Below are positions 52,161 to 58,931 of a stretch of 64,000 bases of DNA, one piece after another. This DNA is from a phage. The stretch lies in the sequence record PZ452588.1; one strand, 5' to 3'. Below the pieces are notes generated by a model. That model did not search any database. It was given only the letters and a program-made list of their open reading frames with translations, and was not told the origin of the DNA. Numbering within the stretch: the stretch's first letter is position 1; every line of letters begins with the position of its first letter. The translations under genes were made by a program, and so were the position numbers.

Positions 52161-52550
52161 TTAATCCAAAATATTATTAGGCATTGGTTGAACACTCACA
52201 AGTTCTTTAAAGAACTCAGTAGAGTCAGGCAATTTAACCATTTCCGGAGCATGCTTACTGAATTTATGTTTACATTGACGGCATTTATATTCAAGCTCTG
52301 GTTTACGCCAGTTAATCAATTGAACTTGTTCAGTACCGCATTCAGGGCAATTAGGAACGTTTTTAGAAGCTCTTTCACGTCGTTCAACCATAGCCATAAT
52401 AGCATCCCATGCTGGAGGTTTAAAATCTAAATCGTCGCAGCCGTGAATCTTTCCACGCATTTCCATATCATCTTCCTCACCAGCCATAATAATTTTAATT
52501 AAACTAGAATTACTTGAAGCTGCAATGTCTTCTAATAAACGCTTTTTCAT
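52161..52550 (-). CDS. Hypothetical zinc-ribbon protein (129 aa)
   Basis: CPECG...CRQC motif. Confidence 0.5.
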
Positions 52551-53476
52551 TTCAATACCTCAATAGCATTACGTAAACCATTTGCTTTTGCATTAAGAGC
52601 TTTTAACAATTTGGTGTGTTCTGCAATTTGGGCTTCAACTTCAATCAAACGGGCATTGAGATATTCACGTTCTTCACTCAGATTATCAACCTTTTCTACT
52701 TTAGGCTCTTTTACAACTGTCTTATATGTATTAGGGTTCTTCAGTTTAATTAGAATGCGTGAACTGTATAACATTGAACCATTATCTTCGGTTTCGTCAT
52801 ACATTTCCACTACGTCCATAATTTTTAACATCATGCGGAGTTTATAAGACAACGAACGAATAGTTTTGTTGTGCTTATTAATTTCTTTAGCTGTCATGGT
52901 GCCAAGATTACGTGAGTAATAATAAGGAACCTGGATATTAATTAATACTGATGAACCACCTGGCTTGTGTGTTACTTCATCAGCAATAACCCAATCCTTA
53001 ACATGAACTGTATTTGTACGGTCATCGCCCGCGGTAAATAGTTTACGAGCATGCTTAAAAAGCATATTCACTTGGTCATTGAATTGACAAGCGAATTTAT
53101 CAGCAAATTTAGTTTCAGGAATGGTAGAAAACCAATCAGCCAAATGGGTCTTTTTAACATCATTAACAATAGTAAATTCAACCAAATCGGTTATAGATGT
53201 CTCAGATTTAACGAAGCTCGGCTTCATAAAGTTTTTAATGTTCTCATGAGCTACAGTAGAAGATAACATACGAGAACGTTTAAACCATTCAAGCAAATTA
53301 CCTAACGAATGAGAATAAGCATTCTGAGTATCTTTACAGATATGATTTTCCTGGCCAACATATTGAAGGAAATCACGAAGAATATTATTGATTACTGCCC
53401 TGTGTCCTATCTGATAATTACGATGTTTAGTAATAAGACTATCAAAATAATCAATATAATGTTTACGAGTTTTCAT
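52547..53476 (-). CDS. Hypothetical protein (309 aa) with C-terminal coiled coil; first of four tandem ORFs
   Basis: N-terminus MKTRKHYIDYF; C-terminal heptad-rich segment. Confidence 0.55.
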   Translation of the reverse strand: MKTRKHYIDYFDSLITKHRNYQIGHRAVINNILRDFLQYVGQENHICKDTQNAYSHSLGNLLEWFKRSRMLSSTVAHENIKNFMKPSFVKSETSITDLVEFTIVNDVKKTHLADWFSTIPETKFADKFACQFNDQVNMLFKHARKLFTAGDDRTNTVHVKDWVIADEVTHKPGGSSVLINIQVPYYYSRNLGTMTAKEINKHNKTIRSLSYKLRMMLKIMDVVEMYDETEDNGSMLYSSRILIKLKNPNTYKTVVKEPKVEKVDNLSEEREYLNARLIEVEAQIAEHTKLLKALNAKANGLRNAIEVLK

Positions 53477-53528
53477 GTTCTTCTCACTTGATTAATGATT
53501 TATGCTCCGAGCCATCCTTGGCTTTAAA

Positions 53529-54530
53529 TTACTTAATTAACTGTAAAGCTTGTTCAAGACGATCCAGGCGATTAACAGATTCTTCCCAAATCCTTTTAGC
53601 CTTCTCATATTCTTTCTGTGATTTATTAGAAATTTCTAGAGCTTCTTTATAAGCTTTTTCTAATGCAATAACTTCTGGACGAATTTCTACCGGTTCAGGT
53701 GAATCATCAAGATTATCCATTAGTTCCTCAAGGGTAGTTTCTTCTTTAGGAGTATTCACAATTTCATCACATTTTTGTTGGTAAATTTCTTTATCAGTCG
53801 GTGAGTACGCACATTTCACTTCACGAAGACTAACTACAATTTTGTATCCTTCCCAACCACACATATTCTTAAAAGGATAAGTATGAATATTTTCTACGGT
53901 TTCCATACAAAGTAATGCAGTCTCTAACTGACGAGTTATAGTGCTAGCAATTGAGAAAAATTTATTAATATTCTTTTGGTTAGCGTTTGGTGTAAAAAAT
54001 CCATAATTCACAAAAATAGCTACTTTATTTTCATCAAGCTCATATTCTTTTACGATAATCATATCAGAAGCCAAAGGATGAATTTGACGATAATCGCCAT
54101 AACATAATTTAGAAGCTGATTTTAGAATTTGTCCTTTGAAAAGTCTGAAATTACTAATCCAACGACGAGTAAAAATATTCTCAGGGTCTTCTTTATTATT
54201 AAGATGATAAGAATTAACATCACCGAACCAATTATATCCTACTACATCTTTAGTTCGTTTAATTTCTTTCCCAAAATTACCAAGAATATCCCGATTAACC
54301 AAATATGAAAGAAGACGAGACTCTTTAAAGGTTTTCTTGATAACATCTTTATCTACACGGCTAGAAATTTTACGAATTTCATGAATAAATTTAGTAGAAG
54401 AAACAATACTTGCATCAACACTATTGAGCCATTGATTGATAATAGAAAGAACGATATTTTGACCAAACATCGGTATAGCTTTATCATCAATAACGCTATT
54501 GAATGATTTGATATATTCGTTACGAGTCAT
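53529..54530 (-). CDS. Hypothetical protein (about 333 aa) with C-terminal coiled coil; second of four
   Basis: Start set at MTRNEY after GAGGAG SD; C-terminal heptad-rich segment. Confidence 0.55.
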   Translation of the reverse strand: MTRNEYIKSFNSVIDDKAIPMFGQNIVLSIINQWLNSVDASIVSSTKFIHEIRKISSRVDKDVIKKTFKESRLLSYLVNRDILGNFGKEIKRTKDVVGYNWFGDVNSYHLNNKEDPENIFTRRWISNFRLFKGQILKSASKLCYGDYRQIHPLASDMIIVKEYELDENKVAIFVNYGFFTPNANQKNINKFFSIASTITRQLETALLCMETVENIHTYPFKNMCGWEGYKIVVSLREVKCAYSPTDKEIYQQKCDEIVNTPKEETTLEELMDNLDDSPEPVEIRPEVIALEKAYKEALEISNKSQKEYEKAKRIWEESVNRLDRLEQALQLIK

Positions 54531-54587
54531 ATTAATCTCCTCAGTAGAAAGTAAGAACATTATACCACATCCTTGTGGCAAAGTAAA

Positions 54588-55607
54588 CTAGTTCAGTGCA
54601 TTTAGTGCATTGTTCAGTTTAGAACGTTGCTTTGTCAGATTTTGAACCCTTGACTGAGCTTGTTCTAACGCCTTTTCAGCTTCTAGCACTTCATTGGTCG
54701 CTTTAACGAGTTCATCATCTACTGCCTTAAGAGACTTCTCAATCGCGTCAGCGTGCCATTTTTCTACAGGTTTAAAATTTGAATTTTCAGTAGGAAGAAA
54801 ACTCACTTTATTAAGTTTACATGCATCTATATTGCTTGAGCTATACATCCAAAATTTAGGATCGTTTGATAAGTAATTGGATAAATTTAAGTTATCTTGC
54901 ACTTCCTGCTTTTTCTCTTGCGGGACTTCGTCCTTTCTCAAAAAATCGTATTTAAATGAAACGATCATATCAAGTTCATATGATGTTGTATCTAACTTAA
55001 ATCGTTCAAAACGAGGTAAAATCTTAGATTGAACAGCAGCAACAACATCCATATACTTAAATGCTTCTGTCAGCTGTGATTTAAGACATTCACAAATTGA
55101 AAGAGAATTTTTAGTATTAGGCTTAAAGCTAATTCGTGCAGTTCTATTATTTTCTTTTAACGGTCTTACTTCCATCTGGAGAGTATAACCATCAAATTTC
55201 AGATTCTTTAAGTTAATATCAGAGCCTTTTAATCGACTAGCAGTAGACAAAATTTGCTTTAATTGTCTACGGAACAGAGCAATAAATCTCCATTCAATAC
55301 GATAATGATTCGGATTGAAAAATCCAGATGATAAATCGACCTTACTTTGACCAACGCCTTGAACAAATAGAGGATTTTTATAATCAATAGTTTTACAGAA
55401 ATCGGTGAGCTGCTCACGAGCAGTCATTTGTGTAATATACCCTGCTTTACTAAAATGACGTAACAATTCACTGCTATTTAGATATTTAAAGTGAATAGCA
55501 CGATTAACTTTATCAGGGTCTAAATTATTTTCACACAAAAATGTCATAACATTACGAGTATCGCTGGCAGTACGAACCATATCTTCAATTTGAGAACGAG
55601 TTTTCAT
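54588..55607 (-). CDS. Hypothetical protein (339 aa) with C-terminal coiled coil; third of four
   Basis: N-terminus MKTRSQIEDMV; C-terminal heptad-rich segment. Confidence 0.55.
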   Translation of the reverse strand: MKTRSQIEDMVRTASDTRNVMTFLCENNLDPDKVNRAIHFKYLNSSELLRHFSKAGYITQMTAREQLTDFCKTIDYKNPLFVQGVGQSKVDLSSGFFNPNHYRIEWRFIALFRRQLKQILSTASRLKGSDINLKNLKFDGYTLQMEVRPLKENNRTARISFKPNTKNSLSICECLKSQLTEAFKYMDVVAAVQSKILPRFERFKLDTTSYELDMIVSFKYDFLRKDEVPQEKKQEVQDNLNLSNYLSNDPKFWMYSSSNIDACKLNKVSFLPTENSNFKPVEKWHADAIEKSLKAVDDELVKATNEVLEAEKALEQAQSRVQNLTKQRSKLNNALNALN

Positions 55608-55615
55608 GGTGTTCC

Positions 55616-56506
55616 TTAAGATTTAAGTAAATCAACAATTTTAATTAATTTTTCACGCTCAGATTTAGCTTTACTACTCAATCCAGATAGTCTGAAAATT
55701 TCATCGTCATACTGTTGAATAGAAATATTCAGCTCTTCAATTTGCTTATTAAAATAATCAATTTGTTCAGAATGTTTTTCATTACTACGAACTGGTACAG
55801 GTTTTGTAGGCAATTTAGTTGAACTGGATTCATCCGGGCGATAAATTAAAATACAACTTGAACCAATCGGACATTTTGCACCAGATGAATATTCTAATGT
55901 TCCGGCTTCTTTTAAAACTTCAAAAGCTAAACAGAGATGATGCCCCATATTAACATAATCAGTAGAGCGAGCTCTAATGTAATAATCATCTCCACGAGTA
56001 CTAAATTTAAAGCATTTAAGGTCTTCTGTATTATTAGTTTTAAAAATCATTTGTTTATCTAGACCTTTAGCCAATCGAGCACCTAATGCTAATAATCGTC
56101 GTTGATTTTCCCACAAATCCGCAATCATTTGATCGAATGACAATTTCGGCATTAGTCGACCATAAAGGTCATATCCTTTATTATAATTGCGAAGGATTTC
56201 ACTCGCGTTAATACGAGACAATGCTCCAATTTTATTAAGGGCTTTCATGATGCGATTAGATAAACTCATTCCAGACCCACTTGTTCGCTGTAGATGTTTT
56301 TCTAATCCAAATCCAATATCAACTTTAAACTTATCTAAAATTTCAGCATGAACATCTTTGTCAATAACATTCAAATCTAAAGTTGGGTTAAATCTATGAA
56401 AAAATTTATCTGGCTCTCCACGACGAAGTACAGTCCATTCATTCATCATTTTTTTATTAACTAAAGATTTAATTACTGCATTGACATTATTAATTGCTAC
56501 TGACAT
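55616..56506 (-). CDS. Hypothetical protein (about 296 aa) with C-terminal coiled coil; fourth of four
   Basis: Start set at MSVAINNV after GAGGAAAAT SD; C-terminal heptad-rich segment. Confidence 0.5.
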   Translation of the reverse strand: MSVAINNVNAVIKSLVNKKMMNEWTVLRRGEPDKFFHRFNPTLDLNVIDKDVHAEILDKFKVDIGFGLEKHLQRTSGSGMSLSNRIMKALNKIGALSRINASEILRNYNKGYDLYGRLMPKLSFDQMIADLWENQRRLLALGARLAKGLDKQMIFKTNNTEDLKCFKFSTRGDDYYIRARSTDYVNMGHHLCLAFEVLKEAGTLEYSSGAKCPIGSSCILIYRPDESSSTKLPTKPVPVRSNEKHSEQIDYFNKQIEELNISIQQYDDEIFRLSGLSSKAKSEREKLIKIVDLLKS

Positions 56507-56915: not shown

Positions 56916-56970
56916 AATAATCTCAATTAAAAGGGCTTAGAACCATTATACCATCCTTGGTATAAAGCGG

Positions 56971-57498
56971 TTATGCGAGTACCGTCTTTAACCGTTCTTC
57001 AAATTTCCGAAGAGTGTTCTGGCGTTCAGCTCTTTGCTTTTTGTAAGTTTCAATACGCTCTGAAATGAGAGTGTATCGTTCATTTACTGATTCTTTCATA
57101 AAATCAGGAATTTCACGAGAAGCTTTAATCTCGTCAAATTTATCAATAACAGCTTGCTCTTCAGCAATTAAGTTATCATACATCAAAATATCTTTCTTGA
57201 TGAACTCAATATCTTCTTGAGTTACACGAGATAATTTAGATGCTTTATCCTTTTTGTATTGTTCGTTAGTATCACGAGACCAGTGTAATGTACGATTTTT
57301 ATTCGTATTCTTGTAAATTTCTACAATACCAATCTCATCAATAATAACGATCCAATTCCAACGGGATTTGTAAATTTGTCCTCCATCAACCGTGATTTCA
57401 CCACCGATTGAGACATCATTAAAGAACTTGCTTTGAGCTTCAGATTTAAATTTACCATCATTGTAGTTTACCAAGTTGAAAATATCTTTAGCATTCAT
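56971..57498 (-). CDS. Hypothetical protein (about 175 aa)
   Basis: Start set at MNAKDIF after GGAGG SD; the track N-terminal extension is promoter leader. Confidence 0.5.
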   Translation of the reverse strand: MNAKDIFNLVNYNDGKFKSEAQSKFFNDVSIGGEITVDGGQIYKSRWNWIVIIDEIGIVEIYKNTNKNRTLHWSRDTNEQYKKDKASKLSRVTQEDIEFIKKDILMYDNLIAEEQAVIDKFDEIKASREIPDFMKESVNERYTLISERIETYKKQRAERQNTLRKFEERLKTVLA

Positions 57499-57962: not shown

Positions 57963-58931
57963 TTATTTCAGAAGAGTAACCTCAGCGATTTCTTCCCAAC
58001 CGTTTTTGTCGGTCATAATAAAGTCAGCAAGATAAAGCGCAGTACGCAGTGAAACATTGCGTAAACGATTAACATTGACTTTCATCCATGATAATGCTTT
58101 ATAAGTTTCTTCATCAGAAAGACCACGCTTTTGCATCATGTCGGTTGAAAGAATAACATCTTCAACCCTGACCATAATTTCTTCATTAGTGTGAACACCC
58201 AAATCCAAATAAACTGAGCGGGACACTAATGCTTGTAAATGTGGAGCAAGTTTAGTACCACGGTCTAATTCGCGGTCAATGTCAACGTTTGTGATAAAAA
58301 CGATCGTTCCTTTAAATTCAAACTCACGCTCAATGCCTTTTTCTTCTAAGTAAGAAGACGCAGTGCTCCAGCAGACTTTACGGGTCTCTCCGGTGTCCAG
58401 AGCAGCTTTCAGAAGATTAAGAATGTCCATATCAGAGAAAACATCCACATCATCAATCAAAAGGACAGAATTCTCTTCACGATTATTCCAGAGCTGTTCA
58501 TAAAGACCGATACCGGAGATTTTACCGTTAATGCTTTTATATTCAATGTATCCATTATCATTTGCTTTATTTAAAGCTTTATCTAAAGAATACGTTTTAC
58601 CAATACCCGCCGCACCAGAGATAATTAATGAACGAATGTTTCCGTTAATAATACCATTCGTCATCATTCCCATAACATTAAATCTTTTATTAATGCGGGT
58701 TTTCATATCTTCATATGATTCTTTAACTTCTTCAACTTTTACACCATCATATGAAATGTCTGATTTGTAAACCCAAACACCGCGACGTTTACCGTCAATT
58801 TCAACAAAAACTTTACCATCTCCTTGTGCATCTACCGGAGCATTATCTGGGAACCATTCACCTAAGAGCTCAAAAGTTCCAGAGATTTCTTTACCAAAGT
58901 AGATACCCTTATTGATAGTTACAGTTTTCAT
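57963..58931 (-). CDS. P-loop NTPase (AAA-like ATPase, about 322 aa)
   Basis: Walker A GAAGIGKT and Walker B VLLIDDVD; start at ATG after GGAG SD. Confidence 0.6.
   Translation of the reverse strand: MKTVTINKGIYFGKEISGTFELLGEWFPDNAPVDAQGDGKVFVEIDGKRRGVWVYKSDISYDGVKVEEVKESYEDMKTRINKRFNVMGMMTNGIINGNIRSLIISGAAGIGKTYSLDKALNKANDNGYIEYKSINGKISGIGLYEQLWNNREENSVLLIDDVDVFSDMDILNLLKAALDTGETRKVCWSTASSYLEEKGIEREFEFKGTIVFITNVDIDRELDRGTKLAPHLQALVSRSVYLDLGVHTNEEIMVRVEDVILSTDMMQKRGLSDEETYKALSWMKVNVNRLRNVSLRTALYLADFIMTDKNGWEEIAEVTLLK

Follow-up and report, generated by a model that had tools for sequence, protein, structure and literature searches.

A tandem family of strongly diverged early proteins upstream of nrdC in a T4-like phage and its possible role in counter-defence

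The closest described relative of the genes treated here is nrdC.5 of phage T4. A T4 deletion mutant is unable to plate on E. coli ECOR17, the block being the host SIR2-domain gene dsr1 (Srikant, Guegler and Laub, eLife 2022, PMC9391042), and expression of T4 nrdC.5 restores plating of this mutant on MG1655 carrying the ECOR17 dsr1 (PMC9391042). The sensor of Dsr1, which is shared with Avs7, is triggered by the phage major capsid protein (2026 Nature, PMC13581612). No mechanism for NrdC.5 is given in the eLife 2022 paper, nor was one found in the later searchable literature. Here we describe the orthologue of this gene together with three adjoining genes, nrdC.3, nrdC.4 and nrdC.6, in a 64,000-nucleotide stretch of phage DNA (sequence record PZ452588.1; this whole stretch is called the window below), and weigh the possibility that the four form a tandem family of early counter-defence proteins.

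The source phage is T4-like (Tequatrovirus), and the four open reading frames (ORFs) are orthologues of T4 nrdC.3, nrdC.4, nrdC.5 and nrdC.6, names that come from matching records using T4 nomenclature. They were found where the first-pass annotation had placed four tandem ORFs, at 52547-56506, consecutively on the minus strand and with lengths of 296-339 residues: nrdC.6 at 55616-56506 (296 residues, ATG at 56506; Pfam PF26899 Phage_T4_Y05B, phrog_2257), nrdC.5 at 54588-55607 (339 residues; Pfam DUF7235 (PF23882), phrog_2351), nrdC.4 at 53529-54530 (333 residues from the ATG of MTRNEY; Pfam PF26897 Phage_T4_Y04OP, phrog_1435) and nrdC.3 at 52547-53476 (309 residues; the same Pfam and PHROG family as nrdC.4), the stop of which overlaps the start of nrdC.2 (ATGA). 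In a nucleotide search the 4-kb stretch was 80-97% identical to hundreds of Tequatrovirus genomes, and its surroundings are those of the T4 minus-strand prereplicative block from nrdC.10 to nrdC, with the glutaredoxin NrdC of the window 100% identical to that of T4. The window is nevertheless distinct from T4, identity to the T4 proteins being 98% for NrdC.6, 93.8% for NrdC.5, 95% for NrdC.4 and 60% for NrdC.3, and the NrdC.3 allele is only ~60% identical to the counterparts in T4, T2 and T6.

NrdC.5 matched the DUF7235 hidden Markov model (HMM) with 383.6 bits (E 9.8e-115, model positions 1-307 of 307, gathering score 30 bits), and NrdC.3 and NrdC.4 matched phrog_1435 over their full length (E 7e-116 and 2e-168), the precomputed PF26897 annotation being present on 63/63 NrdC.4 homologues and on one NrdC.3-containing chimera. 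NrdC.6 matched phrog_2257 (E 6e-152), with the precomputed PF26899 annotation on 105/105 of its homologues. The genes are already known as T4 ORFs in Pfam and PHROG families, one of them with a published phenotype. New here are the union of the three database families in a single superfamily, the layout of the domains, the combination of a fast-evolving body with a slow tail, and a catalogue of deletions and chimeras.

Relationship and domain layout of the four proteins

It is highly probable that NrdC.3, NrdC.4, NrdC.5 and NrdC.6 are very diverged paralogues of one ancestral gene with one common architecture. The strong divergence between their bodies, noted at first reading, was evident in pairwise BLASTP, where only NrdC.3 and NrdC.4 gave a significant match (23% identity over 226 residues, E 3e-6) and the other five of the six pairs did not. 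Much more was found when profiles, made as family alignments from database homologues and phage genomes, were compared by hhalign. NrdC.4 and NrdC.3 were joined with 98% probability (E 5.7e-14), in line with PHROGs and Pfam, each of which already places NrdC.3 (Y04O) and NrdC.4 (Y04P) in one family. The NrdC.3/4 profile was joined to NrdC.5 with 94% probability (E 1.9e-7), rising to 97% (E 3.9e-11, 252 columns) with the NrdC.5-like proteins of Mosigvirus and Gaprivervirus added. For NrdC.6 the first profile comparisons, made before these relatives were added and NrdC.3/4/5 merged, were non-significant, and direct comparisons are weak (E 7e-4 against NrdC.3/4 and 0.01 against NrdC.5); against the merged NrdC.3/4/5 profile NrdC.6 reached 87% probability (E 4e-6). 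These matches (E 6e-14, 4e-11 and 4e-6) run colinearly through the bodies, which therefore are not unique to each gene as had been stated.

The alignments also contain recognisable motifs. F-K-x-S-R-L-L-S…L…F-G-K in NrdC.4 corresponds to L-N-K-I-G-A-L-S-R…L…Y-N-K in NrdC.6, and the next aligned elements of these two proteins are a helix ending in …A-S-K/R-L, a G-x-D and a Q-L…A…M…V helix. An M(K)TR N-terminus and a P-V linker motif are common to NrdC.3, NrdC.4 and NrdC.5. The joint alignment of these three has three invariant columns only, T2 and R3 of the M(K)TR start and F86, and hydrophobic residues prevail in those that are nearly invariant. No catalytic-looking set of residues is therefore evident, which fits a binder rather than an enzyme.

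AlphaFold models were used for two of the four proteins, NrdC.4 (predicted local distance difference test (pLDDT) score 82.7, predicted template modelling score (pTM) 0.67) and NrdC.6 (pLDDT 77.8, pTM 0.65), and were compared by Foldseek with the predicted viral structures of BFVD. Both models run through their elements in the same order: a helical bundle at the N-terminus is followed by two paired helices, and then by a beta hairpin, a long helix and another hairpin before the linker and tail are reached. NrdC.4 has in addition a three-stranded insert at residues 88-110. The two proteins are accordingly predicted to have the same fold and topology. The NrdC.4 model matched a NrdC.3 (E 2e-8) and the NrdC.6 of JS10 (E 5e-5), and seven further matches, all uncharacterised proteins of 300-370 residues, were common to the two models; these come from T4-like phages of Enterobacter, Pectobacterium, Acinetobacter, Klebsiella, Erwinia and Yersinia. 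Template modelling (TM) scores of the family matches were 0.3-0.5, with predicted models on both sides. The shared fold and the colinear motifs indicate a duplication of the entire gene, with M(K)TR start, Pro-Val linker and tail all included, and the first-pass suggestion of a duplicated and diversified family stands on this profile-profile homology and common predicted fold.

Each protein is laid out as an alpha/beta body of ~230-270 residues, a short flexible linker containing proline (…KPV/EPV…) and a heptad helix of 48-57 residues. In the NrdC.4 model a low-confidence linker (274-283) precedes a helix at 285-332, and in that of NrdC.6 a low-confidence linker (228-242) precedes helices at 243-272 and 278-295. 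The heptad tails, all on the minus strand, lie at 55619-55780 in nrdC.6 (residues 243-296, with a break at LSGLSS), 54591-54761 in nrdC.5 (residues 283-339), 53532-53678 in nrdC.4 (residues 285-333, modelled as one continuous 48-residue helix past the linker) and 52550-52693 in nrdC.3 (residues 262-309). They comprise 6-8 heptads each with at most one Pro or Gly, and in a single uninterrupted register 86% (NrdC.3), 79% (NrdC.4), 94% (NrdC.5) and 80% (NrdC.6) of the a/d positions are hydrophobic, against 18-29% of the other tail positions. At least four uninterrupted heptads in a helix with hydrophobic a/d positions, our criterion for a coiled coil, were present in all four tails. A crude home-made heptad score compared with shuffles, which is not COILS or Marcoil, had its maximum in the C-terminal tail of every protein (z 3.2 for NrdC.3, 2.1 for NrdC.4, which is borderline, 5.3 for NrdC.5 and 3.6 for NrdC.6), and weak matches to Pfam coiled-coil families were seen at residues 286-336 of NrdC.5. 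The window has 92 ORFs of 80 residues or more, and of these only the four genes and the neighbouring nrdC.8 gave high-scoring C-terminal heptad tails.

A heptad-rich segment thus closes all four genes, as first noted, and the register analysis agrees on this with the models of NrdC.4 and NrdC.6. The further claim of a common C-terminal module needs correction: every gene has such a helix, but the tail sequences differ between the paralogues, each having its own tail type, and no single module is shared. In comparisons of distant orthologues the tail is conserved to 67% and the body to 24% in NrdC.4, to 65% and 38% in NrdC.5 and to 55-70% and 41% in NrdC.6. Within each paralogue lineage the tail evolves much slower than the body, and these better-conserved, paralogue-specific tails argue for constraints specific to each paralogue.

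When the NrdC.3/4 profile was run as an exhaustive HMM search over 1.84 billion representative proteins, it gave 10 matches only and no link beyond T4-like phages; among the 10 is a linking sequence, P0231, which combines a body of the NrdC.3/4 type with an NrdC.5-like tail (34% identity, 71 residues, E 1e-5). Sequence and profile searches of the PDB gave no relative with a solved structure, PADLOC gave zero matches, and NCBIfam gave sub-threshold matches only (the XerC/XerD N-domain and coiled-coil families). Within T4-like phages the arrangement appears old. The Acj61 protein E5E4A2 is one of the matches shared by both models, E5E4A1 was matched by the NrdC.4 model only, and E5E4A1 and E5E4A2 are equal in length to the products of Acj61p120 and Acj61p121, two genes that adjoin each other on the same strand immediately upstream of nrdC; Acj61p120 also matches the merged profile by sequence (E 3.5e-5). 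This adjacent pair upstream of nrdC indicates that the tandem arrangement is old within Straboviridae. The proposed superfamily reaches T4-like phages of Acinetobacter, Klebsiella, Erwinia, Serratia, Yersinia and Pectobacterium.

Variation, expression and neighbouring genes

By tblastn in phage genomes NrdC.3 was found in 654, NrdC.4 in 554, NrdC.5 in 541 and NrdC.6 in 742, and a T4-like genome has one to four complete copies of the family. T4, T6 and the window have four; VR7 has NrdC.6 with NrdC.5-like and NrdC.4-like proteins, O157 typing phage 13 has NrdC.6-like, NrdC.5-like and NrdC.3-like proteins, AV115 has two, and ACG-C40 has NrdC.6 and remnants, left by a deletion from nrdC.5 codon ~70 to the nrdC.3 tail (L002 5805-6216). 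Salmonella phage Manna carries an in-frame fusion, NrdC.6(1-270)::NrdC.4(258-333), joined at a common QQxxDEI micro-homology (L007 4215-5252). An NrdC.5::NrdC.3 chimera (P0056) and an internal duplication of NrdC.6 residues 177-259 in Shigella phage Sf25 (P0121) were also detected. The genes nrdC.3-nrdC.6 are dispensable, with flux in copy number.

Substitution rates were estimated pairwise by the Nei-Gojobori method between the window and T4 and T6, over three genome pairs. The ratio of nonsynonymous to synonymous rates (dN/dS) was 0.22-0.33 for nrdC.3, nrdC.4 and nrdC.5 and 0.05-0.13 for nrdC.6. Among the flanking genes it was 0.00-0.12 for nrdC.10, nrdC.9, nrdC.8, nrdC.1 and nrdC, 0.12-0.20 for nrdC.7 and 0.17-0.36 for nrdC.2, so that amino acids change faster in nrdC.3, nrdC.4 and nrdC.5 than in most neighbours. 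Local maxima occur in nrdC.5 at codons 1-50 (8 nonsynonymous and 3 synonymous changes) and 251-300 (11 and 5), where the hand-worked dN/dS is roughly 0.7-0.8. NrdC.6 is the most diverged paralogue of the four and the best conserved one within Tequatroviruses. Compared with T4, dS is ~1 for nrdC.3 and nrdC.2 and mostly ~0.1 in the flanks, and the 40% divergence of nrdC.3 from T4 together with this dS points to replacement of the allele, not to fast evolution in place. Like nrdC.3, the neighbouring nrdC.2 has had its allele replaced in comparison with T4 (78% identity, dS ~1). In Manna a window-type NrdC.3 is paired with a T4-type NrdC.2, and the two alleles are therefore not strictly linked.

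Three of the genes had been said to start with MKTR or MTR, and their opening codons agree, being ATGAAAACTCGT in nrdC.3 and nrdC.5 and ATGACTCGT in nrdC.4; nrdC.6 opens with ATGTCAGTA. A Shine-Dalgarno sequence of its own, proposed for each gene, is clear in nrdC.4 (GAGGAG), nrdC.5 (AAGGA) and nrdC.6 (GAGGA), and only a weak GAG is present at nrdC.3. The ATG of nrdC.4 at 54530 lies 6 nucleotides past GAGGAG. Many records give nrdC.4 a 10-residue N-terminal extension, MFLLSTEEIN (54531-54560, 343 residues), with an ATG that overlaps the -10 hexamer (TATAATG). The longer ORF (from 54560/54581) begins within the promoter and distant NrdC.4 orthologues all start at MTR, and the 343-residue form is probably a mis-annotation.

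An early promoter had been claimed at 54555-54592, and a T4 early-type sigma-70 promoter, GTTTACT-17-TGgTATAAT, does lie between nrdC.5 and nrdC.4 at 54559-54587 on the minus strand. T4 and T6 have the identical sequence, and its hexamers and spacing are kept in VR7 (Gaprivervirus) and in L010, a distant relative of metagenomic origin, despite diverged flanks. Most probably nrdC.4 and nrdC.3 are transcribed from this promoter and nrdC.6 and nrdC.5 from upstream early and middle promoters, with expression of all four genes prior to replication. Upstream of nrdC.7, CCGCTTTA followed after 12 nucleotides by TATAAT (~56945-56970, minus strand) resembles a MotA-box middle promoter. A T4 middle promoter, PnrdC.7, has been mapped experimentally (PMC2988021). 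Judged from its sequence, the candidate in the window would drive nrdC.7, nrdC.6 and nrdC.5. The sequence CCAAGGATGG, a small hairpin of the GCCA/TGGC type whose loop is AAGGA, was found upstream of nrdC.3 (53512-53521) and nrdC.7 (56951-56960) on the minus strand, with a variant at 54564-54577 in the spacer of the nrdC.4 promoter and also upstream of nrdC.4 in VR7 and in L009. The box showed no enrichment above chance in the window, where the observed count was reached in 9/100 shuffles, and it probably belongs to the promoter context.

Some observations concern the neighbouring genes. The product of nrdC.8 (56971-57498, minus strand, 175 residues, PF26901 Phage_T4_Y05D) has a heptad-rich C-terminal helix at residues 136-175 (~56974-57093, crude z 4.0); its body looks unrelated to the nrdC.3-nrdC.6 family, and five adjacent genes thus have coiled-coil-like tails. 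NrdC.2 (52161-52550, minus strand, 129 residues) contains a zinc-ribbon motif, CPECG…CRQCKHKF. NrdC.10 (57963-58931, minus strand, 322 residues) carries a Walker-A P-loop, GAAGIGKT, is 99% conserved between the window and T4, and gives weak matches to AAA and STAND-type NTPase families and to clamp-loader PHROGs. In Acj61 an annotated nicotinamide phosphoribosyltransferase stands beside a ribose-phosphate pyrophosphokinase (L011 1229-3938) and looks, with it, like a pair for salvage of nicotinamide adenine dinucleotide (NAD+); it is in the same genome as the tandem NrdC-like pair.

Possible role in counter-defence

We consider it likely, with a probability of about 0.6 for the whole package of paralogy, activity against Dsr1 and mechanism, that nrdC.3-nrdC.6 are a tandem family of early counter-defence proteins. 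Their products would be dispensable accessory proteins that neutralise host immunity. The variable body would be the part that binds the target, and the paralogue-specific coiled-coil tail would bring the protein into a homo-oligomer, by which the target could be bound and blocked with avidity. NrdC.5 would bind Dsr1 directly, perhaps at its capsid-protein sensor, and block sensing or NADase activation before the capsid protein appears, while NrdC.3, NrdC.4 and NrdC.6 would act likewise on other host defence proteins. The separate parts differ in strength. The NrdC.5 of the window is very probably active against Dsr1, and for NrdC.3, NrdC.4 and NrdC.6 the chances of being counter-defence proteins are evenly balanced. 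The first-pass idea of effectors finds its support in nrdC.5, a published counter-defence gene against Dsr1, and the published phenotype is for nrdC.5 only. Traits of accessory genes are present in the locus, i.e. natural deletions and fusions, one to four copies and a conserved early promoter.

Several points weigh against this reading. The evidence for nrdC.5 acting against Dsr1 is one genetic complementation (PMC9391042). The homology of NrdC.6 has moderate scores (hhalign 87%, Foldseek TM 0.38-0.44, with models from shallow alignments), and the gene is slow (dN/dS 0.05-0.13) and 95-99% identical in 482 phage genomes, which is unusual for a gene in an arms race. No gene-wide positive selection (dN/dS >1) was found in any of the four genes across the three genome pairs; the arms-race selection suggested earlier in this sense was not recovered, gene-wide dN/dS being below 1 throughout. 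In addition, a long solvent-exposed helix could serve binding of a partner rather than self-association. The literature adds little: DUF7235, PF26897 and PF26899 are not mentioned in what is searchable, nrdC.3-nrdC.6 are absent from the text of the screen of Silas et al., NrdC does not occur in the main text of the EVADES preprint, and the DRT1 paper names nrdC.8, taken there for a nucleotide reductase, only as a down-regulated transcript.

Other explanations have to be weighed against a counter-defence family. The literal sense of unique bodies would be that these are unrelated ORFs with C-termini that are merely alike in composition and in their coiled-coil-like character. The non-significant BLASTP in 5/6 pairs and the non-significant direct profile comparison of NrdC.5 with NrdC.6 would fit this, but it is very improbable given the colinear body profiles (E 6e-14, 4e-11, 4e-6), the element order and Foldseek cross-match of the NrdC.4 and NrdC.6 models, and the M(K)TR start and P-V linker common to NrdC.3, NrdC.4 and NrdC.5; for these three proteins it is already contradicted. 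The proteins could instead modulate nucleic-acid transactions of the phage or host, for example as prereplicative DNA- or RNA-binding regulators, with the effect of NrdC.5 on Dsr1 being indirect. Early expression, a location among nucleotide-metabolism and recombination genes, the helical bundle that forms the N-terminal half of the NrdC.4 and NrdC.6 models, and a very weak match of NrdC.3 residues 30-86 to the N-domain of the XerC/XerD tyrosine recombinases (E 0.0025-0.03, far below the cut-offs) are all in keeping with such a role. The XerD matches reach, however, only 15-17 bits where the cut-offs are ~280-335 bits, viable phages with these genes deleted or fused occur in nature, variable copy number would be unusual for core regulators, and nrdC.5 alone suffices to restore plating on the dsr1 strain; we regard this explanation as unlikely.

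Hardly more probable is a role as early decoys, in which the alpha/beta part of the body would mimic the fold of tail-terminator or tail-completion proteins and occupy Avs- or Dsr-type sensors before the structural proteins appear. Bacterial STAND and Dsr1 sensors do recognise the shapes of core virion proteins, tail terminators included, but the sole known target, Dsr1, senses the major capsid protein and not the terminator. A broader form of the counter-defence reading can be proposed tentatively, and we would sooner doubt it than rely on it: the array formed by nrdC.3-nrdC.6, together with its counterparts that precede nrdC throughout the T4-like phages, might be a modular "sensor-blocker" toolkit derived from one duplicated ancient scaffold. 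Each fast-evolving body would then plug a different pattern-recognition sensor, such as capsid sensors of the Dsr1/Avs7 type and possibly, in view of the terminator-like fold, terminator or tail sensors, and the slow paralogue-specific coiled coils would set an oligomeric geometry that matches oligomeric immune receptors. If this were true, the locus would provide three new anti-defence proteins, the targets of which could be read from it.

Placing nrdC.3, nrdC.4 and nrdC.6 in one fold family with nrdC.5 makes them concrete counter-defence candidates in T4, the best-studied lytic phage. With its variable body, flexible linker and conserved coiled coil, the architecture also suggests a domain-swap route to the mechanism of Dsr1 neutralisation, and the merged superfamily is syntenic upstream of nrdC as far as the Acinetobacter phages. 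The outcome is useful rather than surprising, as the accessory regions of phages are already expected to carry anti-defence genes.

Compared with known systems, the nearest is T4 NrdC.5 itself (Y05A_BPT4), to which the window orthologue is 93.8% identical over its full length and which has the same genome position. The T4 allele was the one assayed, against the Dsr1 of ECOR17, whereas the window allele has ~6% of its residues changed, mainly at 1-50 and 251-300. DSAD1 of SPbeta-like phages, which acts against DSR2, is likewise a phage protein that neutralises a SIR2-domain NADase defence protein; it is described as binding its defence protein directly, and the same mode is proposed here for NrdC.5. 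By direct match or by the annotation of their homologues the four proteins are assigned over their full length to PF26897, PF26899 and PF23882 and to PHROGs 1435, 2257 and 2351, but whereas the databases keep three separate families of "unknown function", one superfamily is proposed here. Tail terminator and tail completion proteins with the lambda gpU fold share 3-18% sequence identity with the family. The family proteins differ from them in being early, non-structural and roughly twice as large, and in their additional helical N-domain and coiled-coil tail, and the resemblance may be that of a generic alpha/beta sandwich.

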